Positions 2,521-55,930 of a DNA stretch of 64,000 nt are shown here, piece after piece. The DNA lies in contig CAZNOJ010000002.1 in NCBI GenBank assembly GCA_964574665.1, positions 6,130 through 70,129 on the forward strand. The letters run 5' to 3'. The notes under the pieces are model-generated. The model was not told where the DNA came from. It saw nothing but the letters and a program-made list of their open reading frames with translations, and did no database searches. Positions within the stretch are counted from its first letter, which is position 1, and each line of letters begins with the position of its first letter. Made by a program: the position numbers and the translations under genes. The DNA is from an uncultured Gemmatimonadaceae bacterium. Lineage in GTDB: Bacteria; Gemmatimonadota; Gemmatimonadetes; Gemmatimonadales; GWC2-71-9.

Positions 2521-2614
2521 GTGAAGGGTGAAGGGTGAAGGGTGAAGCGGACGCGATTCCCGCTTCACCCTTCACCCTTCACGCTTCACCCTTCACCCTT
2601 CACCCATCACCCTT
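2521..2614. repeat. Tandem-heptamer hairpin element, GTGAAGG family (copy A)
   Basis: The left arm is 3 x GTGAAGG followed by a truncated GTGAAG (2521-2547, 3.9 units). The loop is about 9 nt (acgcgattc). The right arm has about 7 CCTTCAC-type units (2560-2614). The element starts 16 nt after the acetyltransferase stop. Confidence 0.9.
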
Positions 2615-2618
2615 CCCG

Positions 2619-2678
2619 CGTGATGCCGTGATCCTTCCGTGACCATTCCGTTGCCATTCCCGTGACCTCCCCGTGGCC
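2619..2678. repeat. Degenerate 11-nt tandem repeat (about 5-6 copies of CGTGAYCNTTC) upstream of the TonB-dependent receptor gene
   Basis: Read directly: cgtgatgc / cgtgatccttc / cgtgaccattc / cgttgccattc / cgtgacctccc / cgtggcc. The period is about one helical turn. It lies 90-145 nt upstream of the ATG at 2765. Confidence 0.6.
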
Positions 2679-2764
2679 CGGGGCGGCGATCGTGCTGCCG
2701 AATTCTGGAGCCCGGCGCGACGGTCGTGCCGGGTCCACGAACCGGCTCACGATGGACGGACACG

Positions 2765-5503: not shown

Positions 5504-5628
5504 GCACCCTGCACGTGTGACCCGACCGTGACCCGGCCGTGGTGCAACGCCGACACCTGCTGCCGTAATTGGGCGCCGAGTGTCGGCGTTTGCCGTGGAC
5601 GATGATCACCAACCTCGAGGATTGCCCC

Positions 5629-7320
5629 ATGCGTGTCGCGAAGCTGTCCCGTTCCCTTCTCGCCCTGACGGCGGTGCTGGTGGCCGCGTGCGGCGAAGAC
5701 CCGGTGACCCCGCCGCCGGGGAACGACAACCCTGCGCCGACCGGCCTCGCCGCCGCCCCGACGGGCACCACGACCATCAACCTGACCTGGGCCGCTCCCG
5801 CGAAGGCGGTGACCCAGTTCGTGCTGCAGCGCGCCACCGGCACCGGCGCCTACGCCGAGATCGCCCGGCCCGCCGCGGGGGCCACGGCCTACGCCGATGC
5901 GGGACTCACCGCCTCCACCGCCTACTCGTATCGCCTCGCCGCGGTGCGCGATGGCGCCACGTCCGCCTTCTCCGCGGTGGCCACCGCCACGACCGGGGAC
6001 GAGGAAGTTCCCAGCAACATCGTGGACGTGACGGCGAACATCACCACCAACACCCTGTGGACCTCCGTCAAGATCTACGTGCTCAAGGGGTTCATCAAGG
6101 TGGCCAACGGGGCCACCCTGACGATCCAGCCCGGCACCCGGATCGTCGGCGACTTCGAGACGCTCGGTGCCTCCCTGTTCGTGCTGCGCGGCGCCCGGAT
6201 CGTCGCCAACGGCACGGCGGACCACCCGATCGTCTTCACCTCGGAGCGCGAGGCGGGTCAGCGGCAGCCCGGCGACTGGGGCGGGCTGATCCTGATCGGC
6301 AACGCCCGGATCAATCGGTCGGGGACGGTCAACCTCGAGGGGACCGGCACCGACAACACGCTGAATCCCTTCATCCCCTACTCGGGCGGCGACAACGACT
6401 TCGACAACTCCGGCTCGCTCCGCTACGTGCGAGTGGAGTACGCCGGGTACGCCCCGGCCCCCGACGCCGAGCTCAACTCCTTCACCTTTGCGGCGGTGGG
6501 CGGCCAGACCACGGTCGAGTTCCTCCAGGCGCTCAACGGCCTCGACGACCACTACGAGTGGTTCGGCGGGACGATGGATGCCCGCAACCTGGTGTCGTAC
6601 GAATCGGGTGACGACCACTTCGACATGTCGGAGGGCTTCCGCGGCCGGCTCCAGTTCCTGATCGGCTACCAGAGCAAGGTGCTGGTACCGCGGCCCCAGG
6701 CCGGCGGCGTCTCCAGCGATCCCCAGGGGATCGAGAACGACGGTTGCGGCTCCAACGCCGGTGGCGGCTGTGATCTCGGCTTCAACTCCACCCCGCTCAC
6801 CATCCCGGTGGTGGCCAACTTCACCCTGATCGGCACCGGCCCAGGGGTGGTGGGCGCCTCGGGTGGCTACGGCATGGTGCTGCGCCGGGGCGTGGGCGGG
6901 CACTACGTCAACGGCCTCCTGGCCCGGTGGCCGTCGGCCGCCGTGGGGTACCGCGATGCGCAGACCAAGCAGCGCGAGATCGAAGGGGTGTTCTCGCTGC
7001 AGGGGATCTACGCGGCCGAGACGGCCACGCTCTTCCAGGCTGGGCAGCAGGTGTACGGATCGCCGGGCAACCTGGAGCACGCGGCCGCCACCACCGCCGC
7101 TTCCCTCTTCACCGCCCTCCCAGCCAATCCGGCGGCGGCGGCCGACTTCGATTGGTCGCTGGCCGCCGGCGTGGCGCCGCGGACCGGAGGCGTGGCGGTT
7201 TTCACCGGCGACCTCGCCAACCGCGCCGCCGGGTTCGTGAACGCCACCGGCTACCGCGGTGCCGCCGACCCGGCCGGTGCCAAGTGGTGGGCTGGCTGGA
7301 CCGCGTATTCGGACAACTGA
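5629..7320 (+). CDS. Surface lipoprotein with fibronectin type III domain and beta-helix-like region (probable partner of the upstream receptor)
   Basis: The ATG at 5629 gives MRVAKLSRSLLALTAVLVAAC (lipobox). An FN3-like segment follows (PTGLAAAPTGTTTINLTWAAP...YSYRLAAV). Then a repetitive beta-rich region (TLTIQPGTRIVGD...ARIVANGTADHPIVFTS). Function unknown. Confidence 0.65.
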   Translation: MRVAKLSRSLLALTAVLVAACGEDPVTPPPGNDNPAPTGLAAAPTGTTTINLTWAAPAKAVTQFVLQRATGTGAYAEIARPAAGATAYADAGLTASTAYSYRLAAVRDGATSAFSAVATATTGDEEVPSNIVDVTANITTNTLWTSVKIYVLKGFIKVANGATLTIQPGTRIVGDFETLGASLFVLRGARIVANGTADHPIVFTSEREAGQRQPGDWGGLILIGNARINRSGTVNLEGTGTDNTLNPFIPYSGGDNDFDNSGSLRYVRVEYAGYAPAPDAELNSFTFAAVGGQTTVEFLQALNGLDDHYEWFGGTMDARNLVSYESGDDHFDMSEGFRGRLQFLIGYQSKVLVPRPQAGGVSSDPQGIENDGCGSNAGGGCDLGFNSTPLTIPVVANFTLIGTGPGVVGASGGYGMVLRRGVGGHYVNGLLARWPSAAVGYRDAQTKQREIEGVFSLQGIYAAETATLFQAGQQVYGSPGNLEHAAATTAASLFTALPANPAAAADFDWSLAAGVAPRTGGVAVFTGDLANRAAGFVNATGYRGAADPAGAKWWAGWTAYSDN

Positions 7321-7326: not shown

Positions 7327-7463
7327 GTAAAGGGTGAAGGGTGAAGGGTGAAGGGTGAAGGGGATAGCAGGTCCTTCGACTCCGGGATCGCCTCGCGATC
7401 CCTTCGCTCAGGATGAGGAACCTGCCCTGTAACCCCCTTCACCCTTCACCCTTCACCCTTCAG
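7327..7463. repeat. Tandem-heptamer hairpin element, GTGAAGG family (copy B), with a 72-nt spacer carrying a second nested palindrome
   Basis: The left arm is GTAAAGG plus 4 x GTGAAGG (7327-7361). The right arm is 3 x CCTTCAC plus CCTTCAG (7436-7463). The spacer contains GGGATCGC-CT-CGCGATCCC and the motif GCGATCCCTTCGCTCAGGATGAGG (7395-7418). Confidence 0.9.
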
Positions 7464-10866: not shown

Positions 10867-12840
10867 TCACAGCAACGGCCACCAGTCGGGATGTGCGTCC
10901 AACCCGAGCGACAGGTGGCCGCGCCGAGGGTTCCAGGCCCCCTCCAGCCGCAGCGCGGGGCCCCAGAGTTCCAGGCGCAGGCCCACGAACGGCACCAGGC
11001 CGTCGGCGGCGGCCAGGTCGGGGCGCGGCGGGCCACCGGCCACCGCCAGCCCCGCGAAGGGGGCCACGGCGCTCCCGGGGTGGAAACCAGCCCGCCCAAG
11101 TCGTGGAGCGGGTAGCGACAGCCCGAATGTCCGGGACACCTCTGCCCGCAGGAAGCGTCGTCCGGCAACGCTCCGGGCCGCGGTGGTTGGAACGGAGCCG
11201 ACTCCCCCAAGGACGAACGCCCGGTGTGGCGGCACACCCCCACCGCTCAGACCCACGGCGACATCGCACCGCATTTCTGCCGGAAGCAGGCATCCCGCCG
11301 TGGCCACGCCACGCCACCACCACGACTCCACACGGCCACCCTCGCCCGTCACCGTCCAGCCGCGCCCGGTCCTGGTGCGGCCATCGTGGCGCAGCCACCA
11401 TCGCCACGCCGGGTCGCTGCCGAGCGGTGGATTCTCCCGCACCGTACCGTCGAGGGCCTCGAAGCGGCTCGTGCGCGAGGTGACACGCTCCCGGGCGCCG
11501 CCAAGCACCACGCGGGCGACGCGGAGTTCGCCCGCGACGCGATCCACCTGGTACCAGTCACCGGCGTCATCGCCCGTGAGCGTCGTCGCGAGCGAGTTCA
11601 CCAATCCGCTCCGTCGCGGTTGCCACTCGCTCGACTCCACCGCGCGCTCCGCACGGAGCGCCCACCCCAGTCCGCGCCACACCCCGCTCACCGCGGTGCC
11701 GCCGCTGAGTCGACGATCGGACATCCCCACGGCCGCCTGCAGCTCGAGGGCAACGCCTGCCCGACTCAACCAGCGCATCCCCGCCCCGAGCGTCGGCCCC
11801 TGCACCCGATTGACCCGCACCAGGTGGCTGAGTCCCCGGCCCACTCCGAACCGCACGCCGGGGAGGCCCTCGAGGAGTCGCTGGCTGAGCAACTGGCCGG
11901 CCTGCGCGGTGATCGCCTCGAGCGCGGCGGCCTCGTTGGCCGCTGCCTCGAGATCGATCCGCATCGGTGCCGGCCAGGATCCCGCGCCCGGTGCACGCAG
12001 TCCGGCGATGGCCTCGCCGGCAAACCGGTCCGGGGGATGCACCACCCCGAGGCGGTAGTCATCCAGCTTCCAGTCGGCGCGGATCACGGTCTCGAGCGGC
12101 AGCGCGAGCCACGGCACGGCCCGGGCGATGGTGATGGACTGTCGCCAGGGCAGCCACCAGCTGCCCTCGTGGAGGGCGTTCTCGAGCCGCACCGCGATCG
12201 CGGATACGCTCGGATCGCGGTAGGAGGCGCCGGTGAAGGTGAAGTCGAAGCGCACCAGTGCCGCGCGATCCACGTCGAGGTACAGCACGCCCACCGCGCC
12301 GGGGCCCTCGGCATCCGCCGGTCGCACTTCGATCGCCACGGCGCGCAACGAGCCGGCGGGCCCGCCCAGCACCAGGGTGTCGCCCGGCCGGAATCGGTAA
12401 TGCTCGAGGCCCCTGGACGAGAGCGGGTGCGGGACGTCGCGGACCTCGTCGCCCTCGCCGAGCCGGATCTGGTCCCCGAAGTCCTGGGTCACGATGCCCA
12501 GGTGGTCGCGGTGGTAGACGATGCTGGTGGGCTGCAGGATGCTGTCTCGCCACGCCACGATGACCTGCTTGCTCCGGCTCGGGGCTTCCCCGTACACTTC
12601 GACCCGCAACTCGTCGACCCGGATCACCCGCTCGATCGGCGTTTCCCCGTGACGCATGACCGCTGCAAATCGGACGGTGCCCTCCGCCGTGGCCTGCCAT
12701 CGCGCGAGCGACCCGGCAGCGTCGCGGCGGCTGCGCTCGCTCGCGGCGCGGCGCACCACGTCGAGCCCGTCGCCCCGTTGCCACTGCGCCGGAAGCGTCG
12801 CCACCGGCAGCAGCAGGGCAAGCGCGGTCACCAATCGCAT
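10867..12840 (-). CDS. Hypothetical exported protein (possibly outer-membrane associated)
   Basis: The ATG at 12840 gives the signal-like N-terminus MRLVTALALLLPVATLPAQ. The upstream 137 codons of the track ORF have no support. The sequence is beta-rich with a Gly/Arg/Trp-rich C-terminal third. No motif recognised. Confidence 0.5.
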   Translation of the reverse strand: MRLVTALALLLPVATLPAQWQRGDGLDVVRRAASERSRRDAAGSLARWQATAEGTVRFAAVMRHGETPIERVIRVDELRVEVYGEAPSRSKQVIVAWRDSILQPTSIVYHRDHLGIVTQDFGDQIRLGEGDEVRDVPHPLSSRGLEHYRFRPGDTLVLGGPAGSLRAVAIEVRPADAEGPGAVGVLYLDVDRAALVRFDFTFTGASYRDPSVSAIAVRLENALHEGSWWLPWRQSITIARAVPWLALPLETVIRADWKLDDYRLGVVHPPDRFAGEAIAGLRAPGAGSWPAPMRIDLEAAANEAAALEAITAQAGQLLSQRLLEGLPGVRFGVGRGLSHLVRVNRVQGPTLGAGMRWLSRAGVALELQAAVGMSDRRLSGGTAVSGVWRGLGWALRAERAVESSEWQPRRSGLVNSLATTLTGDDAGDWYQVDRVAGELRVARVVLGGARERVTSRTSRFEALDGTVRENPPLGSDPAWRWWLRHDGRTRTGRGWTVTGEGGRVESWWWRGVATAGCLLPAEMRCDVAVGLSGGGVPPHRAFVLGGVGSVPTTAARSVAGRRFLRAEVSRTFGLSLPAPRLGRAGFHPGSAVAPFAGLAVAGGPPRPDLAAADGLVPFVGLRLELWGPALRLEGAWNPRRGHLSLGLDAHPDWWPLL

Positions 12841-12864: not shown

Positions 12865-13428
12865 GTGCTGGCCGGCACGATCGGCTGCGCGGCGCGGCCC
12901 TTTGCGCCCGAGAGCGGCCCCAGTCGCGCAGATCGGGTGGCCGCCCTGCCGGCCCAGCCCGCCGACCGGGTGCTGCTGGCCAATCGGGCCGGGGTCTCGC
13001 CGCCGGACACCGTGGTGCAGTTCGCCGCGCGGGATGGGCGCACCATCGTGCTGCGTCACGCGCCGCCCGACAATGCCGTCTTCGTGGTGGTGCAGGTGCC
13101 CGCCGACACCGCCGCGGGCGATTCGCTCCAGCTCACGCTCAGGCCCGTGCCGGGACGCTATGGCGTCGTGGTGCAGGCGGAGCCGCGGCTGCCGAGCGGG
13201 GCCTCGGTGGCCTTCTCGTACGCCATCCACTTCGCACCGCCGGACAACCACCCGACGGCGGCCTACCCGACCGCGGCCCGCTATGCCGACTGGCTGGCGA
13301 TCCTCCGGGTCCAGGCCGATGGCAGCTACCGCTTCCTCGCCACGTCGCGTCCGGCCACCGACATGGTGCGCGCCATGCTCGAGCAGCCGGGGGAATACCT
13401 CGTCGGCGCACCGGTGACCCCGCCGTGA
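12865..13428 (+). CDS. Hypothetical protein, lipoprotein-like, start unresolved (possible 1-nt frameshift near 12839-12841)
   Basis: The frame is open upstream and reads ...GRKIGALLVLAGTIGCAARPF (lipobox LAGTIGC). The only in-frame canonical start is the GTG at 12865, which truncates the signal peptide. The stop overlaps the trpE start (GTGA). See findings. Confidence 0.4.
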   Translation: MLAGTIGCAARPFAPESGPSRADRVAALPAQPADRVLLANRAGVSPPDTVVQFAARDGRTIVLRHAPPDNAVFVVVQVPADTAAGDSLQLTLRPVPGRYGVVVQAEPRLPSGASVAFSYAIHFAPPDNHPTAAYPTAARYADWLAILRVQADGSYRFLATSRPATDMVRAMLEQPGEYLVGAPVTPP

Positions 13429-14927
13429 GCAGCGCGGTGCTCGACCAGTGCCGCGAGGCGCTGGCCAAGGGGCACGGGCGCTACCCCGTGGTGCGCGAGC
13501 TCGTGCTCGACGGCGACACGCCGGTCTCGGCGTTCGCGAAGCTGCACCGCGGCGAGTACGGGTTCCTCCTCGAGTCGCTCGAGGGCGGCGAGCGGTGGGC
13601 GCGCTTCACCTTTCTCGCCACGGAGCCCGCCGCCGTGTATCGGTACCGCGGCGAGCAGGTCGAGCAGCGCTGCGACGACGGAACCTGGCAGGCGCTGGCC
13701 GCGCCGATGCCTCCGCTCGACCACCTCGGCGCCCTGGTGCGGCCCGTCACCGCCCCGGCGGTGGAGGGGTTGCCGCGCTTCACCGGGGGCGCCGTGGGGT
13801 TCTGGGGCTACGACGTGGTGCGCACCATCGAGCGCCTGCCGGATCCTCCCGACGACGACCGCGATCTCCCCGATGCCGTGGTGATGCTGGTGGACACCTT
13901 GCTGGTGCTCGACCACCTCCACCACCGCGCCACCGTGATCGCCAACGTGCCGCTGGACGGACCCGCAGACGACGCCACGCTCCGGGCCCGCATCGCCGCC
14001 GCCGAGGAACGCGCCGGGGACTGGGTGCGGCGGCTGTCGGATCCGTCTTCGCTGGTCCCGCTCGCCACGCGCGGGTCCCCATCACCCTGCCCGACCACGT
14101 CCCCCTTTTCCGACGCGGCGTTCCGGGCCGGTGTCGCCCGGTGCCAGGAACACATCGCGGCCGGCGACGCCTTCCAGGTGGTGCTCTCGCGGCGCCTCGA
14201 CGTGACCTGGCACGGCGAGCCCTTCGACGTGTACCGGTGGCTGCGCTCGCTCAATCCCGCCCCGTACTGCTACTTCCTCCGGCTCGGCGAGTTGACGCTG
14301 GCCGGCGCCTCCCCCGAGGTGCTGGTGCGAGTGGAGTCCGGCAGCGTCACGGTGCGGCCGATTGCGGGGACGCGCCCCAGGGGTGCCGATCCCGACGAGG
14401 ATGCCGCGCTCGAGGCCGACCTGCGCGCCGACCCGAAGGAGTGCGCCGAGCACCAGATGCTGGTGGACCTCGGCCGCAACGACGTGGGACGGGTGGCGGC
14501 ATGGGGGAGCGTCGAGGTGACGACCCACATGACGGTGGAACGCTACGCCAGGGTGATGCACCTGGTCAGCGAGGTGCGCGGCCGGTTGCGGGACGGCAAT
14601 GACGCGCTCGATGCCCTCCGGGCCACCTTCCCGGCCGGCACCGTGAGCGGAGCGCCCAAGGTGCGCGCGATGGAGATCATTGACGCGCTGGAACCGACGC
14701 GGCGCGGCCCCTACGCCGGCGCCGTCGGGTACGTCGGCTACGGCGCGCGCACCCTCGACACCGCCATCGCCATCCGCACCGTGGTGTTCACGCCGGACCG
14801 TGTCTCGGTGCAGGCGGGGGCCGGCATCGTGGCCGACTCCGACCCGGCCATGGAACTGCGCGAGACGGAGATCAAGGCCGCGGCCCCGCTCATGGCGCTG
14901 GCGCAAAGCGTGAAGGGTGAAGGGTGA
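13425..14927 (+). CDS. trpE: Anthranilate synthase component I
   Basis: Family motifs LESLEGGERWARFTF, PIAGTRPRG, GRNDVGRV and MEIIDALEPTRRGPYAGAVGY. 500 aa. The last six codons (VKGEG plus stop) lie inside repeat copy C. Confidence 0.92.
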   Translation: MSSAVLDQCREALAKGHGRYPVVRELVLDGDTPVSAFAKLHRGEYGFLLESLEGGERWARFTFLATEPAAVYRYRGEQVEQRCDDGTWQALAAPMPPLDHLGALVRPVTAPAVEGLPRFTGGAVGFWGYDVVRTIERLPDPPDDDRDLPDAVVMLVDTLLVLDHLHHRATVIANVPLDGPADDATLRARIAAAEERAGDWVRRLSDPSSLVPLATRGSPSPCPTTSPFSDAAFRAGVARCQEHIAAGDAFQVVLSRRLDVTWHGEPFDVYRWLRSLNPAPYCYFLRLGELTLAGASPEVLVRVESGSVTVRPIAGTRPRGADPDEDAALEADLRADPKECAEHQMLVDLGRNDVGRVAAWGSVEVTTHMTVERYARVMHLVSEVRGRLRDGNDALDALRATFPAGTVSGAPKVRAMEIIDALEPTRRGPYAGAVGYVGYGARTLDTAIAIRTVVFTPDRVSVQAGAGIVADSDPAMELRETEIKAAAPLMALAQSVKGEG

Positions 14928-14976
14928 AGGGTAAAGCGGGTTGAGGCCGATTCCCCCTTCACCCTTCACGCTTCAC
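14910..14976. repeat. Tandem-heptamer hairpin element, GTGAAGG family (copy C), between convergent trpE and maf
   Basis: The left arm is 3 x GTGAAGG plus GTAAAGC (14910-14937). The right arm is CCTTCAC, CCTTCAC, GCTTCAC (14956-14976). It contains the trpE stop (14925-14927) and the maf stop (14973-14975). Confidence 0.9.
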
Positions 14977-15554
14977 GTTCCAGGCCTCCCGAACCGATAC
15001 CGATATCCCGCTTCCTCGAGCAGCTCGAGCACCAGCCGCACCGGCAGCCCCATCACGCCGAAGAAATCGCCGTCAATCCGCTCCACCAGCGCGGCGCCCC
15101 ACCCCTGGATGCCGTACCCACCCGCCTTGTCCAGCGGCTCGCCGGTGGCCACGTAATCGCGCAGCCATTCGGCCTCGGCCCGGTGAAAGGTGACGGCGGT
15201 GCGATCGTGCCGCACCCGTTCCACCCCGTCGGCCATCAGGCAGACCGCAGTCACCACGTGGTGGGTGCGCCCCTGCAGCCGGAGCAGCATGGCCAGGGCG
15301 TCGGCGTCGTCGCGCGGCTTCTCGAGGATCTCGTCGTCGAGCACCACGATGGTGTCCGCGCCGAGCACCAGGCGGCCCGGCACCGCGCGGGCCTTGTCGC
15401 GGGCGAGGCGGCGGGCGTAGGCCTCTGGCAACTCGCCGGGGAGCGGGATCTCCTGCACGTTGGCCGGTTGCACCAGCACCGGGAGGCGCAGCATCTCGAG
15501 CAACTGCTGGCGGCGGGGGGACGCCGAGGCCAGCACGATCGTGGGGAAGGTCAT
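14973..15554 (-). CDS. maf: Maf-family nucleoside triphosphate pyrophosphatase
   Basis: [19 protein letters not shown]..., [17 protein letters not shown] and GGYGIQG are typical Maf motifs. The ATG at 15554 overlaps the dtd stop (ATGA). Confidence 0.88.
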
Positions 15555-17873: not shown

Positions 17874-17874
17874 C

Positions 17875-17947
17875 AGGAGGGCGGAGGGCGGAGGACAGCG
17901 GACGGAGCGCGTGGTGCGCTCGATCCTCCGTCCTCTACCCTCCGTGC
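17875..17947. repeat. Tandem-heptamer hairpin element, GGAGGRC family (copy F), between the convergent beta-lactamase-family gene and glmS
   Basis: The left arm is GGAGGGC, GGAGGGC, GGAGGAC then ..GGACGGAG (17877-17907). The right arm is CCTCCGTCCTCTACCCTCCGTGC (17925-17947). It starts 2 nt after the TGA at 17871-17873. Confidence 0.85.
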
Positions 17948-17951
17948 TCGA

Positions 17952-22345: not shown

Positions 22346-23512
22346 ATGACCCGCCTCGCGTCCCCCCCGCCCGCCCATCGCCTCGGCACCCTCGCGGTGC
22401 ATGCGGGACCGGAGCCGGACCCGGTGGCCGGCGCCGTGATGCCTCCGATCTACCAGACGTCGACCTACATCCAGGACGGTCTCGAGCGGCCCCACCACGG
22501 CTACGAGTATGCCCGCACCAGCAACCCGACCCGGCAGGCCTTGGAGCGGGCCCTCGCCACGCTGGAGGGCGGCACGCACGGCTTCGCCTTCGGCTCCGGA
22601 CTCGCGGCGCTCGATGCGGTGCTCAAGCTGCTCCGTCCGGGCGACCACGTGGTCGCCGGGGAGAACCTCTACGGCGGCTCGCACCGCCAGATGGTCCGCA
22701 TCTTCGCGGAGTTCGGGGTGGCGTTCGACTTCGTGGACCTCCGCGACGTGGATGCGGTGCGCGCCGCGTTCCGACCCGCGACCCGGATGCTCTACGCGGA
22801 GACCCCCACCAACCCGATGATGTTCCTGGCCGACCTCGCCGCCCTCGGCGACCTGGCCCAGGCCCGCGGCGCGATCTTCGTGGTGGACAACACCTTTGCC
22901 ACGCCGGTGCTGCAGCGGCCGCTCACCCTCGGCGCCGACATCGTGCTCCACTCCACCACCAAGTACCTCAACGGCCACTCCGACATGGTGGGCGGCGCGC
23001 TGGTGACCTCGCGCGATGACCTCGCCGAAAAGCTCGGGTTCCTCCAGAACGCGGTGGGTGCGGTGCCGGGCCCGTTCGACTGCTGGCTGGTGCTGCGCGG
23101 CCTCAAGACGCTGCCGCTGCGGATGCGCCAGCACTGCGACACCGCGGGGCGGATCGCCGCGTGGCTGGCCGAGCGGAGCGACATCCCGGCGACCTACTAC
23201 CCCGGACTGCCGAGTCACCCGCAGCACGACCTTGCCCGCCGGCAGATGACGGGGTTCGGCGGCATGGTCTCGATCGAACTGGGCTCGGTCGAGCGGATGC
23301 GGAAGGTGGTGCCCCGCTTCCGCCTCTTCGCGCTGGCCGAGTCGCTCGGCGGGGTCGAGTCGCTGCTGGGCCACCCGGCCTCGATGACCCATGCCTCGGT
23401 GCCGCCGGCGATGCGGCAACGGATGGGGCTCACCGACTCGCTGATCCGGCTCTCGGTGGGGATTGAGGATGCGGACGACCTGATTGCGGACCTAGAGGAG
23501 GCACTTGGGTGA
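22346..23512 (+). CDS. Cys/Met-metabolism PLP-dependent enzyme (cystathionine gamma-synthase/gamma-lyase family)
   Basis: Family-typical YARTSNPT, FVVDNTFATP, and the PLP-lysine region HSTTKYLNGHSD. The ATG at 22346 is preferred. The stop codon lies inside repeat copy D. Confidence 0.85.
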   Translation: MTRLASPPPAHRLGTLAVHAGPEPDPVAGAVMPPIYQTSTYIQDGLERPHHGYEYARTSNPTRQALERALATLEGGTHGFAFGSGLAALDAVLKLLRPGDHVVAGENLYGGSHRQMVRIFAEFGVAFDFVDLRDVDAVRAAFRPATRMLYAETPTNPMMFLADLAALGDLAQARGAIFVVDNTFATPVLQRPLTLGADIVLHSTTKYLNGHSDMVGGALVTSRDDLAEKLGFLQNAVGAVPGPFDCWLVLRGLKTLPLRMRQHCDTAGRIAAWLAERSDIPATYYPGLPSHPQHDLARRQMTGFGGMVSIELGSVERMRKVVPRFRLFALAESLGGVESLLGHPASMTHASVPPAMRQRMGLTDSLIRLSVGIEDADDLIADLEEALG

Positions 23513-23563
23513 AGGGTGAAGGGTGAAGCGTGTGCGCCCGCATCACCATTCACCCTTCACCCC
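23509..23563. repeat. Tandem-heptamer hairpin element, GTGAAGG family (copy D)
   Basis: The left arm is GTGAAGG, GTGAAGG, GTGAAG (23509-23528). The right arm is CATCAC CATTCAC CCTTCAC (23541-23560). It overlaps the TGA at 23510-23512. Confidence 0.85.
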
Positions 23564-23636
23564 GGATCGTGATGCAACCTGAAACACATTTCTGGACCTC
23601 CCCGTAAGAGGGATCGTCCCCAACCCCGAGCACCCG

Positions 23637-24659: not shown

Positions 24660-25930
24660 GGATCCTGGTCGTCGGCGGCGGCGGGCGCGAGCACGCCCTG
24701 CTGGCCGCCCTTGCCGCCGACGACCCGCGCCACGAGCTGCACGCCGCCCCGGGCAATCCGGGCACCGCCGCACTGGCCACCAACCACCCCGTCGCCGCCG
24801 ACGACCTCGACCGCCTCGCCGACCTCGCCGACGCGTTCGCGATCGACCTCGTGGTCGTGGGCCCCGAGGTTCCGCTTGCCCTGGGCCTCGCCGACCGGCT
24901 CCGGGACAACGGCCGAGTGGTGTTCGGTCCCGGGGCGTCCGCCGCACGGATCGAGGCCTCGAAGGCGTTCGCCAAGGACGTGATGGCCGCCGCCGGCGTG
25001 CCCACGGCGCCGAGCGCCACCTTCAGCGACCTGGCCGCGGCGCTGGCGCACGTGGAGGGGCACGCGGAGCCGTTGGTGGTCAAGGCCAGCGGCCTCGCCG
25101 CCGGCAAGGGTGCCGTGGTGTGTGCCACGCGCCAGGAGGCGCGCGCCGCGCTGCACGACATGCTCGGCGCCCATCGCCTGGGCGATGCGGGCGACACGGT
25201 GGTGATCGAAGGGTTCCTCGAGGGCGAGGAGCTCTCGGTGTTCGCGGTCACCAACGGCCGCGAGGTGCGATTGCTCCCGGCCGCGCAGGACCACAAGCGG
25301 ATCGGCGAGGGCGACACCGGGCCCAACACCGGCGGCATGGGCGCCTACGCCCCGGTGGCGATCGCCACGGTGGCGTTGCTCGAGCGCGTCGAGCGCGAGG
25401 TGCTGCGGCCCACGCTCGGGGAGCTGGAGCGGCGCGGCGCGCCGTTCCGCGGCGTGCTGTACGCCGGGCTGATGATCCACCCCGACGGCACGCCCAACGT
25501 GGTGGAGTTCAACTGCCGCTTCGGCGACCCCGAGACGCAGGTGGTGCTGCCGCTGCTGGGGCCGGGCCTCACGGCCCTGCTCGACGCCGCGGCACGCGGC
25601 AACCCGCTGCCGGAGGTCACGGTGCGTGGCGGCGTGGCCCTCACCACCGTGCTGGCGAGCGCGGGCTACCCCGAGTCGGTGCGCAAGGGCGACGCCATCA
25701 CGATTCCGGACGACCTTCCCCGGGAGGTCACGGTGTATCACGCCGGCACCGCGACACGCGACGGGCGACTGGTGACGGCGGGTGGGCGCGTCCTGGCCGT
25801 GACGGCGGTCGCGGACACCATCACCGCCGCGCAGCAGCTCAGTCGCGACGCCGCGGAGCGGATCGCCTTCGCCGGCAAGCAGTTCCGGCGGGACATCGGG
25901 TGGCGGGAGGTGTTGAGGAGTGAGTCCTGA
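24656..25930 (+). CDS. purD: Phosphoribosylamine--glycine ligase
   Basis: The GTG at 24656 overlaps the upstream stop (GTGA). Motifs VRILVVGGGGREHAL, an ATP-grasp region, and NTGGMGAYAP. The last codons (LRSES plus stop) lie in repeat copy I. Confidence 0.92.
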   Translation: MRILVVGGGGREHALLAALAADDPRHELHAAPGNPGTAALATNHPVAADDLDRLADLADAFAIDLVVVGPEVPLALGLADRLRDNGRVVFGPGASAARIEASKAFAKDVMAAAGVPTAPSATFSDLAAALAHVEGHAEPLVVKASGLAAGKGAVVCATRQEARAALHDMLGAHRLGDAGDTVVIEGFLEGEELSVFAVTNGREVRLLPAAQDHKRIGEGDTGPNTGGMGAYAPVAIATVALLERVEREVLRPTLGELERRGAPFRGVLYAGLMIHPDGTPNVVEFNCRFGDPETQVVLPLLGPGLTALLDAAARGNPLPEVTVRGGVALTTVLASAGYPESVRKGDAITIPDDLPREVTVYHAGTATRDGRLVTAGGRVLAVTAVADTITAAQQLSRDAAERIAFAGKQFRRDIGWREVLRSES

Positions 25931-25988
25931 GTCCTGAGGCGACGTGGTACACTTCCCAGGACTCACTCCCCAGGACTCACTGCTCCTC
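25915..25988. repeat. Tandem-heptamer hairpin element, TGAGTCC family (copy I)
   Basis: The left arm is GAGGAG TGAGTCC TGAGTCC TGAGG (25915-25939). The right arm is CCCAGGACTCACTCCCCAGGACTCACTGCTCCTC (25955-25988). It contains the purD stop (25928-25930) and ends 1 nt before the mutM GTG (25989). Confidence 0.88.
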
Positions 25989-26813
25989 GTGCCCGAACTC
26001 CCCGAAGTCGAAACGATGGTCCGCGAGCTCCGCCCCCGGGTGACGGGCCGCCGCGTGGTGGCCGTGCGCCTGCGGCACGACGACCTGCTGGCCGGGGTGT
26101 CGCGCGCCACCCTGGTGCGCGGCCTCCGCGACCGCACCATCCACGACGTCAGCCGGCGCGCGAAGCACGCCCTGATCCACACCGACACCCGGATTCTCGC
26201 GGCGCAACCGGGCATGAGTGGCGGGCTCGAGTGGCTCGAGCAGCCGCGCAGCGGCGAGGCCGCCCGCCACGACGTGCTGACCTGCACCCTCGATGACTTC
26301 TCGGTGCTCATCTACCGGGATGTCCGCCGGATCGGCACCCTGCGCTGGACCACCCCGGAGGGTTGGCACGCGTATGCCGCGCGACTCGGCCCCGAGCCGC
26401 TCGACCCCACCCTCACCCCTGCCGACTTCGCCGCCCGGCTCGGCCGTTCACGCTCGCCGATCAAGAAGGTGCTGATGGACCAGCGCTTCGTGGTCGGGGT
26501 GGGAAACATCTACGCCAACGAGGCGCTCTTCGCCGCCGGCATTGATCCGTCCCGCGCCGCCAATGCGGTCCCGGCCGGTAAGCTGGAGGCGCTCCACGGG
26601 CATGTGGTCCGGATCCTGGCCCACGCCATTTCCCGGGAGGGCACCACGCTTCGCGACTACCGCACGCCGAGCGGCGCCACCGGGGAGTTCAAGGAGGAGT
26701 TGCTGGTGTACGATCGGGCCGGCGAGCCCTGCCGGGTCTGCGGCACGGCGTTGGCCGTGACGCACGACATCGATGCCCGGCAGACCGTGTTCTGCTGGAG
26801 GTGCCAGGCCTAG
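25989..26813 (+). CDS. mutM: Formamidopyrimidine-DNA glycosylase
   Basis: The GTG at 25989 is followed by PELPEVE (catalytic N-terminal Pro). H2TH region present. C-terminal zinc finger CRVCGTALAV...FCWRCQ. Confidence 0.9.
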   Translation: MPELPEVETMVRELRPRVTGRRVVAVRLRHDDLLAGVSRATLVRGLRDRTIHDVSRRAKHALIHTDTRILAAQPGMSGGLEWLEQPRSGEAARHDVLTCTLDDFSVLIYRDVRRIGTLRWTTPEGWHAYAARLGPEPLDPTLTPADFAARLGRSRSPIKKVLMDQRFVVGVGNIYANEALFAAGIDPSRAANAVPAGKLEALHGHVVRILAHAISREGTTLRDYRTPSGATGEFKEELLVYDRAGEPCRVCGTALAVTHDIDARQTVFCWRCQA

Positions 26814-26898: not shown

Positions 26899-26908
26899 GT
26901 TTCCATCC

Positions 26909-36276: not shown

Positions 36277-36341
36277 CCCCGCGGCGCCCGCCGCGGTCCG
36301 GCACGATTCAGCTCCTGCCTCGATCCGGTTAGGTTCCCCGG

Positions 36342-51427: not shown

Positions 51428-52735
51428 ATGCGCACCGCCGTCCGTTGCGACGAGGCGCGTGACGCCGTGCTGGCCGCGAGCCGCCGGCAACCTCCCCTCC
51501 GCCTGCCGCTCGAGCACGCCCTCGGCCACGTCCTCGCGCACGAGCTGGTGGCCCCGTGGCCGCTGCCGTCGTGGACGGCCGCCTCGATGGATGGCTACGC
51601 GGTGCGCAGCGCCGACGTGCGTGGCGCCTCCCGCGACGCCCCGGTCACGCTGCCGCTCGTGGGCGGCGGCGACGCGGGTGACGCGGCCCCACCCCCGCTC
51701 GCGCCCGGCACGGCCTGGCGCGTGGCCACCGGGGGCCGCGTGCCGGACGGCGCGGACAGCGTGGTGCGGGTGGAGGACACCGCGCCGGCGACGGGCGACG
51801 GGCCTGCCCCGCCCCGTGAAGCGGCGGCGGGGCGACGGGCGAGCAACCTCGTCACCATCCACCACGACCGCGACGCCGGGCGCAACGTGCGCCCCGCCGG
51901 CGGCGACGTGGTCGCGGGGTCCGTCGCGCTGGCGGCCGGAACTTTCATCACTCCCGGCGTGGTGGCACTGCTCGCCGCCCTCGGCGAATCGCATCCCATG
52001 GTGCATCGCAAGCCGCGGGTGGCGATCGTCACCAGCGGCGAGGAGGTGGTGTCGCTCGACGAGCGCGACCGGATCGCGAGTGGCGAGCGGATCGCCGACG
52101 TGAATGGCCCCGTGCTCGCCGCCCTGGTGCGCCAGGCAGGAGGAGTGCCGGTGCCGGCCGGGCTGGCGCGCGATGACGCGGGGGCCATCGCCGAGGCCGT
52201 GGCGCGGGCCGCGGACGCCGACATGGTGATCACCGCCGGCGGGATCTCCGTGGGCGAGCGCGACCACGTGCCGGCCGCGATGCAGCGGCTCGGCGCCGAG
52301 CTGGTGTTTCGCCGGGTGCGGGTGCGCCCCGGCGGGCCGACGACGCTGGCGAGGTTGCCGGACGGGCGGCCCTGGTTGGCGCTGCCCGGAAATCCGGTGA
52401 GCGCGTTCGTGACGTTTCACGTGTTTGCGGCGCCGGGGATCCGGAGGATGTCGGGTGACGAGCGACGGGCGACGGGCGACGACACCTGGTCGCCTGTTGC
52501 CCCTGGCTCGTCGCGTCTCACCGCGAGACTCGCCGAGCCCGTGCCGCGTGACGCCACCCTTGAGCAGTACCTCCGGGTGACGCTCTCGCCCGCCGGCGAC
52601 GGCGGGTTGCCGTGGGCGCGCCTCACCGGCAACCAGGGGAGCTGGGTGACGAGTTCGATCGCGCAGGCGGAGGGGCTGGCCGTGATACCGGCGGGGGAGG
52701 GCGAGGTGACCGAGGCCGAGGTACTGCCACTGTAG
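51428..52735 (+). CDS. moeA: Molybdopterin molybdenumtransferase
   Basis: MDGYAV, GGISVGERDHV and LPGNPVSAFVTF. 435 aa. It carries an in-frame copy of the ACGGGCGAC-type palindromic repeat at 52455-52521. Confidence 0.88.
   Translation: MRTAVRCDEARDAVLAASRRQPPLRLPLEHALGHVLAHELVAPWPLPSWTAASMDGYAVRSADVRGASRDAPVTLPLVGGGDAGDAAPPPLAPGTAWRVATGGRVPDGADSVVRVEDTAPATGDGPAPPREAAAGRRASNLVTIHHDRDAGRNVRPAGGDVVAGSVALAAGTFITPGVVALLAALGESHPMVHRKPRVAIVTSGEEVVSLDERDRIASGERIADVNGPVLAALVRQAGGVPVPAGLARDDAGAIAEAVARAADADMVITAGGISVGERDHVPAAMQRLGAELVFRRVRVRPGGPTTLARLPDGRPWLALPGNPVSAFVTFHVFAAPGIRRMSGDERRATGDDTWSPVAPGSSRLTARLAEPVPRDATLEQYLRVTLSPAGDGGLPWARLTGNQGSWVTSSIAQAEGLAVIPAGEGEVTEAEVLPL
52455..52521. repeat. ACGGGCGAC-family palindromic heptamer element embedded in frame in moeA
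   Basis: The left arm is GTGACGAGCGACGGGCGACGGGCGACGA (52455-52482). The right arm is GTCGCCTGTTGCCCCTGGCTCGTCGCGTCTCAC (52489-52521). Pairs include GGCGAC/GTCGCC, GACGAGC/GCTCGTC and GTGA../..TCAC. It encodes ...GDERRATGDDTWSPVAPGSSRLT... Confidence 0.7.
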
Positions 52736-52810
52736 CATCAAGCCCAGCGTCCCCGGTCCCCCGTTTCCCGGCACACCGCCCGCCCTTGCCACCCCCATTA
52801 TCTTCCGTCC

Positions 52811-52927
52811 CGAAGGGGAGTAGCCCAGCCGCCGAGACAGGCGGCCGGCGGCATCGTCAAGACTGCGGGGCCCGTCCGGCCCGCACGGTGCCCCCGGGGC
52901 GCGCAAGCGTTTCAGGCGAGACCTTCG
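52811..52927 (+). promoter_or_regulatory. Probable yybP-ykoY (Mn2+) riboswitch aptamer in the htpX-terC leader
   Basis: 5' CGAAGG-GGAGUAGC (52811-52824) and 3' GCGAGAC-CUUCG (52916-52927). The P1 helix CGAAGG/CCTTCG flanks the two hallmark conserved strings (GGGGAGUAG and GAGACC). Internal GC hairpins and a GUCAA element (52856-52860) are present. It lies in a 238-nt intergenic leader, followed by hairpin GGCGAG-GG-CTCGCC and a GGAGGAA Shine-Dalgarno sequence. Confidence 0.6.
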
Positions 52928-52973
52928 CTGGTCCCGGAGCGGTTCCGGGGCGGCGAGGGCTCGCCTTCACTGC

Positions 52974-53828
52974 ATGGAGGAAGTGGTGATCAACACCATC
53001 AAGACGTTCGTCCTGCTGACCGGCATGCTGTCGCTGCTCATGGTGGCGGGCCAGCTCATCGGCGGCGCCCAGGGGCTGCTCATCGGCGGCTCGCTCGGCC
53101 TGATCATGACCTTCGTGTCGTTCTGGTTCTCCGACAAGATGGTGCTGCGCGGCTACCACGCCCGCGTGGTGACCGCCGCCGAGGCGCCGGAGCTGTACCA
53201 GATGGTGGACACCCTCCGCCAGCGCGCCGGCCTGCCGATGCCCAAGGTCGCCATCGTCCCGTCCGAGCAGCCCAACGCCTTCGCCACCGGTCGCTCGTGG
53301 AACCACTCGGTGGTCGCCGTCACCGAGGGCATGCTGCGCCAGATGCCGCGCGACGAGCTCGCCGGGGTGATCGCCCACGAGCTGGCGCACATCAAGAACC
53401 GCGACATGCTCACCCAGACCGTCGCCGCCGGCATCGCCTCGATGATCTCCGTGCTCCCCTACCTGATCATGATGGGGGCGGGGCGCAGCAGCGACGACGA
53501 CCGCGGCGGTGGCTTCGGCGCCCTCGCCCTGGCGATCCTCGCCCCCTTCGCCGCGATGCTGATGCAGTTCGCGATCTCGCGCCAGCGCGAGTTCGCCGCC
53601 GACCGCCTCGGCGCCGAAATCGCCGGCGCGGCGCGGCCGCTGGCCCAGGCGCTGACGCGGATCGAGGCCATGGTGCGCCAGATCCCGATGCCGGTGGCCC
53701 CGCAGCTCGCCCCGCTCGCGATCCAGAATCCGCTCGGCAAGGGGAGCGCCTTCGCGCGGATGCTGTCCACCCACCCGCCGACCGAGGACCGGGTGCGCGC
53801 CCTGCTGGCCCTCGACAACGGCCGCTGA
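52974..53828 (+). CDS. htpX: Protease HtpX (M48 family, membrane-bound)
   Basis: Two N-terminal TM segments. HELAHIKNRD (HExxH). EFAADRLGA. C-terminal ...STHPPTEDRV. The start could instead be the GTG at 52983 or 52986, just after GGAGGAA. Confidence 0.9.
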   Translation: MEEVVINTIKTFVLLTGMLSLLMVAGQLIGGAQGLLIGGSLGLIMTFVSFWFSDKMVLRGYHARVVTAAEAPELYQMVDTLRQRAGLPMPKVAIVPSEQPNAFATGRSWNHSVVAVTEGMLRQMPRDELAGVIAHELAHIKNRDMLTQTVAAGIASMISVLPYLIMMGAGRSSDDDRGGGFGALALAILAPFAAMLMQFAISRQREFAADRLGAEIAGAARPLAQALTRIEAMVRQIPMPVAPQLAPLAIQNPLGKGSAFARMLSTHPPTEDRVRALLALDNGR

Positions 53829-53831: not shown

Positions 53832-54776
53832 GTGGAGCCGCTCGTCACCCATCCGCCCGTGGTGTGGATCGGCTTCACCACCCTGATCGCGCTGCTGCTG
53901 TTCCTCGACCTCGGGGTGCTGAACCGAAGGTCGCACGTGCTCTCGACCAAGGAGGCCGCCAGCTGGAGTGGCGGCCTCGTCACGTTGGCCATGCTGTTCT
54001 GCGGTTTCCTCTGGTACCGCGAGGGGAGCACCCACGCCCTCGAGTTCCTCACCGGCTACCTGATCGAGCTGTCGCTGTCGGTGGACAACCTGTTCGTCTT
54101 CATCCTGATCTTCCAGTACTTCGCCGTGCCCGCCGAGCTGCAACCCAAGGTGCTCAAGTGGGGGATCCTGGGCGCCCTGATCATGCGCGCCATCATGATC
54201 GGCGCCGGTGCGCTGCTGCTGCAGCGCTTCCACTGGATCATCTACGTGTTCGGGGCCATCCTGATCATCACCGGGATCCGGATGCTCACCAGCGGCGACG
54301 CCCACCACGTCGAACCCGAGAAGAATCCGCTGGTGCGCCTCGCCCGGCGGGTGCTGCCGTTCACCGCCTCCTACGACGGCGACAAGTTCTTCACCCGCAC
54401 CCTCACCCGCCGGCTGGCCACGCCGCTGCTGCTGGTGCTGCTGGTGGTGGAGTGGACCGACCTGGTGTTCGCGATCGACTCCATCCCGGCGATCTTCGCG
54501 GTGACCAGCGACCCGTTCATCGTGTACTCGTCGAACGTCTTCGCGATCCTGGGACTGCGGGCCCTCTTCTTCCTGCTGGCCGGCATGCTCGACAAGTTCG
54601 AGTACCTCAAGGTGGGGGTCTCGCTGATCCTCGTCTTCGTCGGGATCAAGATGACCCTCTCCGGCGTGATGCACCTGCCGATCGTGCTGTCGCTCGGCGT
54701 GATCGCCGGCACGCTGGCCGGGTCCATCCTGCTCTCGATCCGGAAGAACCGCCGAGAGGCGCGCCTGGCGGCCTAG
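53832..54776 (+). CDS. terC: TerC-family integral membrane protein
   Basis: TerC signature ELSLSVDNLFVFILIF and a second repeat FAIDSIPAIFAVT. 314 aa. GTG start 3 nt after the htpX stop. Confidence 0.88.
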   Translation: MEPLVTHPPVVWIGFTTLIALLLFLDLGVLNRRSHVLSTKEAASWSGGLVTLAMLFCGFLWYREGSTHALEFLTGYLIELSLSVDNLFVFILIFQYFAVPAELQPKVLKWGILGALIMRAIMIGAGALLLQRFHWIIYVFGAILIITGIRMLTSGDAHHVEPEKNPLVRLARRVLPFTASYDGDKFFTRTLTRRLATPLLLVLLVVEWTDLVFAIDSIPAIFAVTSDPFIVYSSNVFAILGLRALFFLLAGMLDKFEYLKVGVSLILVFVGIKMTLSGVMHLPIVLSLGVIAGTLAGSILLSIRKNRREARLAA

Positions 54777-54802
54777 CGGACGTCGCCCGTTATCCTTTGC
54801 CC

Positions 54803-55849
54803 ATGTCCAAGCTTCCCGTCGCCGTGCTCGGCGCCACCGGCGCGGTGGGCCAGGCCTTCATCGCCCGGCTCGCCGACCACCCCTGGTTCGAGGTGGCGCA
54901 GGTGGCCGCCTCCGCCGAGCGCGTCGGCCTCCGCTACGGCGAGACGGTGCGGTGGCGCGAGGCGCGGCCGCTGCCGGAAGGCGTGGCCGCGCTGCCCTGC
55001 ACCACCGCGGAGCCCGCCGCCGGGATCCGGATCGCCTTCTCCGCCCTCGACGCCGCGGTGGCGCGCGACGTGGAACCGGCCTTCGCCGCCGCCGGCGTGC
55101 TGGTGGTGAGCAACGCCTCCGCCTTCCGGATGGCGGCCGACGTGCCGCTGGTGATCCCGGAGGTCAACCCGGGGCACCTGGCGCTGCTCGACCACCAGCG
55201 GGCGCAACGCGGCTGGCGCGGGGGCATCGTCGCCAACCCCAACTGCTCCACCGCCGCGCTGGTCACCGCCCTCGCCCCGCTCGACCGCGCCTTCGGCCTC
55301 GAGCGCGCGGTGGTGGCCACGCTGCAGGCCGCGTCCGGGGCCGGGTATCCGGGCGTCCCCTCGCTCGACCTGCTCGACAACGTGATCCCGTACATCGCGG
55401 GCGAAGAGGAGAAGATCGAGGCGGAGTGCCGCAAGCTCCTCGGAACCCACGACCCCCACGCGATCCGCGAGGCCACCCTGACCGTCAGCGCGATGGTGCA
55501 CCGGGTCCCCGTCCTTGACGGGCACCTGGTGAGCGCGTCGCTCGCGTTTCGGAGGGTCCCGTCGGTGCAGGAGGCCGTGGCGGCACTCGAGGCGTTCCGT
55601 GGCGACGCCACGGTGGCCGGCCTGCCCACCTCACCGTCGCGCCCGATCGAAGTGGATGCGCGGGTGGACCGACCCCAGCCACGGCTCGACCGCGACCGCG
55701 GCCGGGGCATGACCGTGACGGTAGGGCGGGTGCGGCCCTGCCCGGTGCACCACCTTCGCTTCGTGGCGCTGGGCCACAACCTGGTGCGCGGCGCGGCGGG
55801 CGCGGCGATCCAGAATGCGGAGCTGTGCGTGGCAGGACAGAAGGTGTAG
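54803..55849 (+). CDS. asd: Aspartate-semialdehyde dehydrogenase
   Basis: VAVLGATGAVGQ (NADP site), the active-site Cys in NPNCSTA, and LQAASGAGY. Only the last 348 codons of the 850-aa track ORF are real. Confidence 0.9.
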   Translation: MSKLPVAVLGATGAVGQAFIARLADHPWFEVAQVAASAERVGLRYGETVRWREARPLPEGVAALPCTTAEPAAGIRIAFSALDAAVARDVEPAFAAAGVLVVSNASAFRMAADVPLVIPEVNPGHLALLDHQRAQRGWRGGIVANPNCSTAALVTALAPLDRAFGLERAVVATLQAASGAGYPGVPSLDLLDNVIPYIAGEEEKIEAECRKLLGTHDPHAIREATLTVSAMVHRVPVLDGHLVSASLAFRRVPSVQEAVAALEAFRGDATVAGLPTSPSRPIEVDARVDRPQPRLDRDRGRGMTVTVGRVRPCPVHHLRFVALGHNLVRGAAGAAIQNAELCVAGQKV

Positions 55850-55930
55850 CGGAGGACAGAGGACAGAGGACAGAGGACGGAGGGCAGGGTCCATCCTCTC
55901 CTCTCCGTCCTCTGCCCTCCGTCCTCCGTC
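55850..55930. repeat. Tandem-heptamer hairpin element, GGAGGAC/AGAGGAC family (copy H), between convergent asd and the GGDEF gene
   Basis: The left arm is GGAGGAC, 3 x AGAGGAC, then GGAGGGC (55851-55885). The right arm is CCTCTCCTCTCCGTCCTCTGCCCTCCGTCCTCCGTC (55895-55930). It starts 1 nt after the asd TAG and overlaps the GGDEF gene stop (55929-55931). Confidence 0.88.

Follow-up and report, generated by a model that had tools for sequence, protein, structure and literature searches.

Heptamer-repeat hairpins have been noted for more than 30 years in the form of short tandemly repeated repetitive (STRR) sequences and have been counted in Xanthomonas, and their origin and function were never settled. 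Cyanobacterial STRR sequences are reportedly the subject of work by Mazel et al. in 1990. Here, we analysed a 64-kb stretch of DNA (the window; G+C ~71%) on an 89-kb contig from an uncultured member of the Gemmatimonadales, placed by protein searches, in which nine gene junctions carry strong hairpins whose arms are tandem 7-nt units. A comparison with the same junctions in related genomes indicates that these elements occupy the niche of terminators and other 3'-end hairpins.

In cyanobacteria, STRR, whose repeats are usually 7 bp long, form hairpins in the hupS-hupL intergenic region and close to the 3' ends of genes; the roles suggested for them, still unproven, concern the stability of transcripts, translational coupling or termination (Devine et al. 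2009, PMC2670836). In Xanthomonas, arrays of GGGAATC are intergenic, lie on the sense strand no more than 50 bp from stop codons, are rare between divergent genes and vary among species; each genome holds 70-75 close convergent pairs with stem-loop potential. The repeats were found to form G-quadruplexes (G4) in vitro, without a function being settled on (Rehm et al. 2015, PMC4692102). As relayed in PMC4679880 and PMC4692102, Mrazek, Guo and Shah (2007) found heptanucleotides to be the most abundant long simple sequence repeats in many bacteria, with heptamers dominating the repeats of 5-11 nt in phylogenetically scattered genomes, and slippage with a 7-nt preference was proposed. The part of that survey relayed there gives the same picture of periods as our census of the window, the difference being that arrays were counted rather than paired hairpins or their position relative to stops.

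The elements of the window share with the Xanthomonas GGGAATC and Nostoc GGGGAYT repeats a strongly intergenic placement and tandem G-rich units of 7 nt, which there number from 2 to more than 20 copies. As in the Xanthomonas pairs, the arrays are convergent, with the G-rich arm first on both strands, and as in both known groups, related species have repeats at the corresponding junctions that differ in length and sequence and are not tied to mobile elements. Set against the features that mark the repeats of Rehm et al., the window elements have at least two head-to-tail 7-nt units, form a convergent pair in nine of nine cases and lie 0-15 nt from a stop codon; tracts of three to four G are found in GGGTGAA, GGAGGGC and GGGCGAC and are absent from AGAGGAC, GGAGAGG-type and TGAGTCC units. 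They differ in coming from Gemmatimonadota, in having other units, several of them within 64 kb, and in that some units lack G3 tracts. Moreover, Rehm et al. did not connect their pairs to terminators, whereas the junctions orthologous to those of the window carry canonical terminators in relatives.

The likeness to STRR, such as those between hupS and hupL and upstream of hoxW, lies in 7-bp tandem repeats that fold between genes or near the 3' end of the upstream gene, with several units per genome. STRR units, in contrast, are cyanobacterial and AT-rich to moderate in GC content, many of their arrays are unpaired, and co-variation of arms is not reported in the STRR work cited here. In the narrow sense, STRR are defined by occurrence in (filamentous) cyanobacteria and by named units; the window belongs to Gemmatimonadales and its units differ. 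The elements are best regarded as analogous to STRR without being members in that narrow sense and appear to be of the same kind as the cyanobacterial STRR hairpins and the convergent GGGAATC pairs of Xanthomonas. A preliminary description of this DNA had not recognised them as a described class. The class is already described, and the window provides a well-documented further example in a new phylum and with new units, several of which would not be expected to form G4.

Heptamer-arm hairpins of the window

Genes were called by third-position G+C and cross-checked against annotated orthologous loci, and z-scores of RNA folds were computed against dinucleotide shuffles. All nine loci form a strong hairpin, in which two to five tandem heptamers make up the 5' arm and the reverse-complement heptamers the 3' arm, with a spacer between them (Table 1). 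As RNA, their fold energies range from -35 to -95 kcal/mol and their z-scores from -3.4 to -10.0. The pattern GTGAAGGGTGAAGG, allowing at most one mismatch, matches the window 25 times and the shuffles 0 times. The nine hairpins of the preliminary description are borne out. Its assignment of units also stands (GTGAAGG at five loci, GGAGGRC/AGAGGAC-like at three and TGAGTCC at one), save that the right arm of the TGAGTCC element repeats every 14 nt and not every 7. Spacers reach ~70 nt, in keeping with the upper end of the 9-72 nt first reported, and go down to 5 nt at 55850-55928 (10 nt by the arm boundaries of the repeat finder), below the lower end of that range. The unequal arms noticed at 2521-2614 (4 versus 7 units; ~7.6 by our count) result from a 21-nt, three-unit tandem duplication that affects the right arm only.

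Table 1 Coordinates, units and gene context of the heptamer-arm hairpins (window positions; z, fold energy against dinucleotide shuffles)
Feature	Position	Unit	Arms and loop	Junction and stop codon	z
Element 1	2521-2614	GTGAAGG	left (GTGAAGG)4 2521-2550; loop 9 nt; right (CCTTCAC)~7.6 2560-2614	co-directional; 15 nt past stop 2503-2505	-9.9
Element 2	7327-7463	GTGAAGG	left (GTGAAGG)5 7327-7363; right (CCTTCAC)4 7433-7463; ~70 nt apart; inner hairpin 7384-7402 within spacer	begins 6 nt past stop 7318-7320	-10.0
Element 3	14908-14977	GTGAAGG	14908-14940 and 14953-14977	convergent junction filled; both stops overlapped, 14925-14927 (+; TGA of third unit) and 14973-14975 (-)	-9.2
Element 4	17875-17949	GGAGGGC/GGAGGAC	17875-17903 and 17922-17949; inner hairpin 17904-17921	fills convergent gap 17874-17951	-5.4
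Element 5	23507-23562	GTGAAGG	left (GTGAAGG)3 23507-23530; complement 23539-23562	co-directional; stop 23510-23512 is TGA of first unit	-7.2
Element 6	25915-25988	TGAGTCC	left (TGAGTCC)2.6 25915-25939; right 25955-25988, period 14	stop 25928-25930 is TGA of a unit; element ends at fpg start GTG 25989 (PELPEVET, Fpg)	-3.4 (weakest of nine)
Element 7	26810-26899	GGAGRNN-type	26810-26843 and 26868-26899	TAG stop 26811-26813 within stem; GTTTCC directly after element	-6.2
Element 8	29717-29771	GTGAAGG		between ubiA and flavoprotein gene, both - strand; overlaps ubiA stop 29766-29768	-4.8
Element 9	55850-55928	AGAGGAC/GGAGGAC	55850-55889 and 55895-55928	fills convergent gap; stops 55847-55849 (+) and 55929-55931 (-)	-6.1
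Fourth type	28548-28600	GGGCRAC-type	13-bp stem	convergent junction 28543-28603	-1.5 (but clean stem)
Fourth type	30655-30728 (-)	GCGACGG-type		directly after ubiD stop 30725-30727	-2.0
Fourth type	52453-52522 (+)	GGGCGAC-type		in-frame inside moeA (51428-52735, +)	-5.1

The period of 7 nt dominates the stretch. In a census of exact arrays that used a single fixed match-run threshold and covered periods 2-15, the window holds 12 arrays of period 7, two of period 14 and none of any other period. Across 420 kb of Gemmatimonadales loci, we found 37 distinct exact arrays of period 7, six of period 14 and at most four of any other period. At the junction orthologous to 7327-7463, one relative (L151, ~960-1025) has arms made of three tandem octamers (GACGCAGA), and the same hairpin design can therefore occur with period 8.

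All nine elements abut or overlap a stop codon, three of them at convergent junctions (14908-14977, 17875-17949 and 55850-55928), where they overlap or abut both stops, and six at co-directional ones, where they lie 0-15 nt from the upstream stop and 0-150 nt from the next start. As first described, eight begin 0-6 nt past a stop or overlap it; the element at 2521 begins farther away, at 15 nt. In four cases, the stop codon is the TGA of a repeat unit. The element at 25915-25988 is intergenic, as had been stated. No stem of the nine is followed by a run of four or more T, which agrees with the reported lack of a U-tract, and TTT follows only position 26899. Every convergent gap longer than 40 nt (four of four) holds a heptamer hairpin, and none of the five divergent junctions of the window carries an element.

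The remaining 3' junctions have ordinary GC-rich hairpins equally near to stops (5504-5589, 36277-36341, 58694-848 and 62209-253). A scan for the consensus of canonical terminators returned one site, not at an element, against 3.5 expected in 20 kb. Because the ordinary GC hairpins sit as close to stops and canonical T-tract terminators are nearly absent, the heptamer hairpins share their niche with the ordinary 3' hairpins of this genome.

Hairpins with a fourth unit type had been listed at 28550, 30655 and 52455 beside the nine. Only the first, at 28548-28600, is an intergenic hairpin, with a right arm that extends by two further 7-nt units. The second lies inside the first 26 codons of the ubiA frame, which are not conserved, the conservation of the protein beginning at REGQT. 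All three genomes that were compared have overlapping ubiD stop and ubiA start codons (GTGA or TAATG), followed by a heptamer hairpin whose unit differs from genome to genome; in two relatives (L171 and L172), hairpins of other units stand at exactly the place of 30655-30728. The third lies in moeA, where its left arm encodes an insertion of 12-13 aa, DERRATGDDTWS, in the linker between the Pfam domains MoCF_biosynth and MoeA_C. This insertion is common to two close homologues, the proteins P0242 (from locus L173) and P0243, and is missing from most homologues.

Orthologous junctions in related genomes

We compared the junctions of the window with those of orthologous loci in relatives, chiefly L120, L125, L170, L171 and L172. 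The nearest relative (L120/L125/L170) shows 81-84% protein identity. At junctions 1 and 2, it keeps GTGAAGG hairpins, with copy numbers that differ and loops that are unrelated, and at junction 2 the GTGAAGG arms of L120/L125 enclose a different inner hairpin. At junction 3, the GTGAAGG/CCTTCAC of the window is matched by GCGAGGG/CCCTCGC in L120, both arms having changed together. Farther along, the 17875 junction has GGAGAAC arms in L172 and ordinary or REP-like (repetitive extragenic palindromic) hairpins in L170 and L171; the 23507 junction has a GTGAAGG hairpin in L171 and none in L170 or L172; and at the 25915 junction the relatives carry unrelated GC hairpins. At the 26810 junction, GCGAACG arms enclose a REP-like inner hairpin in L171 and L172 has CAGCGAA arms, whereas at 29717 L171 carries (AAGGTTG)7 and L172 a different 7-periodic hairpin. 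At the 28548 junction, we found GGCGAGG arms in L170, an unpaired (GGTACGA)10 in L171 and a REP-like hairpin in L172. Unpaired arrays occur in some relatives, (GGTACGA)10 in L171, (GGATGTT)5 in L123 and (AAGGTTG)7 among them, and these are G-rich on the sense strand and stand directly past the stop.

Across the sequences compared, copy number and unit vary fast among relatives while the arms stay complementary. This agrees with the preliminary description in that the architecture is kept and the sequence is not: orthologous hairpins differ in copy number, loop and unit, and compensatory changes link their arms. Its statement that the unit sequences are unrelated does not hold, since GTGAAGG, GCGAAGG, GCGAGGG and GCGACGG are one to two substitutions apart and interchange at orthologous junctions.

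Junction 2, which follows a gene with an fn3 domain, reaches deeper. Here, a canonical terminator stands in 26 relatives that are more distant: a GC-rich hairpin, in many cases with a short T-run behind it. In these terminators (n=26), purines prevail in the outer 7 nt of the 5' arm, with a mean of 4.6 in 7; 15 of the 26 have five or more and none has two or fewer. In some of them, the outer stem reads GTGAAGG, GGAGGAC, GGACAGGAC or GAACGG beside the GC core, and these sequences are repeat units of the window and its relatives. Because the elements are adjacent to stops, and because canonical GC hairpins with T-tracts stand at the same junctions in distant relatives, we assign the elements to the niche of terminators and 3'-end hairpins. 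The earlier suggestion of U-less terminators or RNA-stability elements fits both the positions and the canonical terminators of the 26 relatives. Single junctions thereby offer a comparative series: first a canonical terminator, then a hairpin with heptamer arms, then another unit or an array without a partner. This series connects the repeat class with the terminator niche and suggests the outer stem of the terminator as the source of the units.

The arms also have a fixed polarity. In the window, the G-rich arm is 5' on both strands, in convergent orientation, in nine of nine elements. Among arrays from scans of genomes and viral sequences of several phyla, for which an inverted partner was sought within 200 nt, those with such a partner have the G-rich arm first in 26 cases and the reverse order in 0.

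The unit GTGAAGG is preferred within this lineage despite the unrelated loops. As (GTGAAGG)3, it is found at no fewer than 119 loci belonging to many phyla, some of which have the complete hairpin architecture, and it was considered as a special cross-phylum unit. This was rejected: viral contigs hold 27 loci, compared with 12, 23 and 46 for composition-matched permutations, and the cross-phylum occurrence is explained because G-rich heptamer arrays are generally abundant. A search of the literature for the unit sequence found no relevant report.

Two further repeat families were seen at these junctions. A REP-like palindrome family (CTCATCCCGAGCGCAGCGAGGGAYC ... GRTCCCTCGCTGCGCTCGGGATGAG) is present at 58772-58840 of the window, at 13968-14085 of L172, in L145 and L168, and at junction 7 in L171. 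It is located at gene 3' ends in several Gemmatimonadales and is separate from the heptamer hairpins, being sometimes nested within heptamer arms. In L170, the same ~60-nt GC-rich palindromic repeat stands on both sides of fpg (11267-11346 and 12172-12257), where the window has elements 6 and 7, and looks like a different dispersed repeat family.

Origin and function of the heptamer arms

We consider it somewhat probable that the elements are 3'-end hairpins, serving as U-tract-less terminators or as stem-loops that protect transcript ends, and that their stems were lengthened by 7-nt tandem duplication. The function is one that we infer from position. The elements resemble intrinsic terminators in forming a GC-rich stem-loop straight after the stop, downstream of a gene, in filling convergent gaps, and in the polarity of a purine-rich 5' and a pyrimidine-rich 3' side. 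They differ in having no U-rich tract 3' of the stem and in stems of 20-35 bp made of repeats. U-tracts tend to be shorter in high-GC species, and terminator stems longer (PMC13613805).

The starting point would be a terminator-type hairpin with a purine-rich 5' and a pyrimidine-rich 3' outer stem, such as GTGAAGGGCCGGCG...CGCCGGCCCTTTGCG in relatives. Replication slippage, which favours 7-nt units in many bacteria, would then duplicate the outer stem unit in either arm. With seeds that are complementary from the outset, both arms would become complementary arrays, expanding and contracting independently. A slippage origin of the arms is suggested because canonical terminators share the polarity of the elements and their outer stems match the repeat units. 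The matching of arms may be kept by selection for a paired stem, possibly together with intrastrand template switching. Such switching, known as quasipalindrome correction, could help to keep arms matched. The preliminary description had raised the alternative of a mechanism that generates heptamer arrays symmetrically; no special generator is needed because the two seeds are already complementary, a stem with two unit copies makes each arm prone to slippage, and the 21-nt duplication of element 1 is one-sided.

Once transcribed, the hairpin would stop or pause RNA polymerase without a U-tract, probably aided by Rho or other factors, and/or block 3'-5' exonucleases. At convergent junctions, it could act in both directions, and inside gene clusters (ubiD-ubiA-ubiX, for example) it would make parts of the mRNA differ in stability. 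If transcript 3' ends were confirmed at the elements, a common type of terminator without a U-tract in high-GC bacteria would be accounted for, and terminators would become easier to predict in metagenomes. The elements would also represent a natural system in which stem length, and possibly read-through, varies in 7-nt steps.

Several observations weigh against this interpretation. Two of the hairpins lie within reading frames, in moeA and in the N-terminus of ubiA, where a terminator would be harmful, and an inverted partner within 200 nt is missing from ~80% of the heptamer arrays of other genomes. With five divergent junctions among 27, the absence of elements from all five gives p ~0.08, so that a distribution restricted to 3' ends is not significant on the window alone. 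In a comparison meant to reveal selection on RNA, the sense and antisense transcripts were equal in fold stability and neither strand was favoured by G-U pairs; this symmetry does not point to selection on RNA over selection on DNA, and the support for a role at the RNA level is therefore purely positional. Without a U-tract, classical intrinsic termination is unlikely unless helped, and the preference for 7 nt, together with the dominance of GTGAAGG across unrelated loops, goes beyond slippage alone.

Some of the same facts would be expected if the arrays were a functionless by-product of mutational bias, arising by 7-nt slippage and perhaps template switching wherever they are tolerated, at hairpin bases, past stops and in protein loops, with termination brought about only by an inner or ancestral hairpin. 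We regard this as possible but doubtful. The patchy presence of the elements, the quick turnover of units between close relatives, the many unpaired arrays in L123, L171 and other genomes, the in-frame arrays, the lack of strand asymmetry in RNA, and the commonness of G-rich heptamer arrays of any permutation are all consistent with it. So are the unrelated inner hairpins that some arms enclose, at 7384-7402 and 17904-17921 in the window and at junction 7 in L171. However, the arms are still complementary after a change of unit, the stems are much more stable than those of shuffles, and at 14908-14977, 23507-23562 and 29717-29771 the heptamer stem is the sole hairpin of its junction. The strict polarity of 26 to 0, in addition, requires an added cause.

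Alternatively, the arms might be made by a templated process, locked in polarity and distinct from passive slippage, that extends terminator hairpins at their base in steps of 7 nt, the purine- or G-rich arm always leading. Such a process might convert U-tract terminators into a distinct, tunable, U-independent and bidirectional device for termination or RNA stability across distant phyla (Gemmatimonadota, Xanthomonas, Burkholderiales, Acidobacteriota and cyanobacteria) and even invade coding loops in-frame. We hold this to be distinctly unlikely.

It is very unlikely that the elements are primarily G4 or i-motif structures of DNA or RNA, as proposed for the GGGNNNN repeats of Xanthomonas and Nostoc, with the hairpin secondary. 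The units GGGTGAA, GGAGGGC and GGGCGAC do yield G3N4 tracts, elements 1-3 hold four or more G3 tracts, and such repeats form G4 in vitro, four units being reportedly preferred (PMC4692102). Yet only these three of nine elements have four or more such tracts, and arms of AGAGGAC, GGAGAGG-type and TGAGTCC units, which have no G3 runs, share the same architecture and position. In relatives, the units GGTACGA, GGATGTT, AAGGTTG and GCGAACG likewise have no G3 tract, and in a single strand the complementary arm would out-compete a G4, given the minimum free energies of the hairpins. As a common denominator of the elements, G4 was therefore rejected, several units being without G3 tracts.

REP sequences and bacterial interspersed mosaic elements (BIMEs) of Enterobacteria and Pseudomonas are intergenic palindromes at gene 3' ends, which can stabilise upstream mRNA and act intercistronically. 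The window elements are like them in being intergenic palindromes at gene 3' ends, and a mobile palindromic family of this kind, or one of MITE type (miniature inverted-repeat transposable elements), might have been spread by a transposase encoded elsewhere in the genome, of the REP-associated tyrosine transposase (RAYT)/IS200-like or another type. GTGAAGG recurs at five loci in 30 kb and in relatives, genuine REP-like families are present in the window and in L145, L168, L171 and L172, and some elements lie in-frame within genes. In-frame insertion in genes recalls the palindromic elements of Rickettsia. REP and BIME, however, all repeat a single conserved sequence of ~35 nt that RAYT mobilises, whereas the window elements have only the 7-nt unit in common: the five GTGAAGG elements do not share one conserved palindrome with its stem, loop and flanking tetranucleotide, their loops and flanks are unrelated, and neither terminal repeats nor target duplications accompany them. 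No conserved body and no direct flanking duplication, as features of a MITE, were found at the elements. Copy number changes by whole units and on one side, and units differ between orthologous sites. No transposase or Y1 (PF01797-type) protein was found among the scanned genes of the window and their annotated orthologues, which cover all genes of the window but seven near its ends (~1-421, 13252-13424 and 58849-63965) and no other part of the genome. Given the unrelated loops and the lack of a transposase among the scanned genes, the mobile-element explanation was rejected as highly improbable, in accordance with the earlier statement that the elements are not copies of one REP or MITE.

No more credible is a reading in which the arrays serve as target sites of a regulatory protein or of one that binds single-stranded nucleic acid, for example a cold-shock-domain protein of which each monomer takes up a heptamer, or a protein that binds GGA as CsrA does. 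GGA does occur within many units, and CspB, according to the review part of PMC4679880, binds heptamer direct repeats with one protein per heptamer, but the units of a single genome are highly diverse, as are those at orthologous sites, very stable stems would keep the sites hidden, and no candidate protein is linked to the elements.

Other features of the window

A gathering-threshold scan of the whole window returned no Rfam family. Downstream of moeA, a 238-nt intergenic region (52736-52973) stands upstream of genes for an M48 peptidase and a TerC-family protein. It is near-identical in L173, although the neighbouring MoeA proteins share only 87-90% identity, and is a candidate for a structured leader or non-coding RNA; in an Rfam scan of 52650-53050 with a relaxed E-value, nothing credible was obtained.

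Between 40061 and 44836, three - strand transporter genes (amino-acid permease, SNF-family symporter and Na/Ala symporter) coincide with a dip of G+C to 0.67 and a strong AT skew, apparently no more than an effect of membrane proteins on composition.

Two sets of short motifs recur upstream of genes. CGTGAC/GTTGC direct repeats with ~11 nt spacing are found at 2626-2680 and 5515-5541, upstream of a TonB-dependent receptor gene and of an fn3/beta-helix gene; they are conserved in L120, L121 and L123 and may be a binding site for a regulator. The motif TGCAAC-N-TGAAAC is present at 23573-23585 and 28025-28037 (TGCAGC at 28025), upstream of an M48 peptidase gene and of a 123-aa gene (152 aa in relatives). 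It stands at the same places in L170-L172 and may be a promoter or regulatory site.

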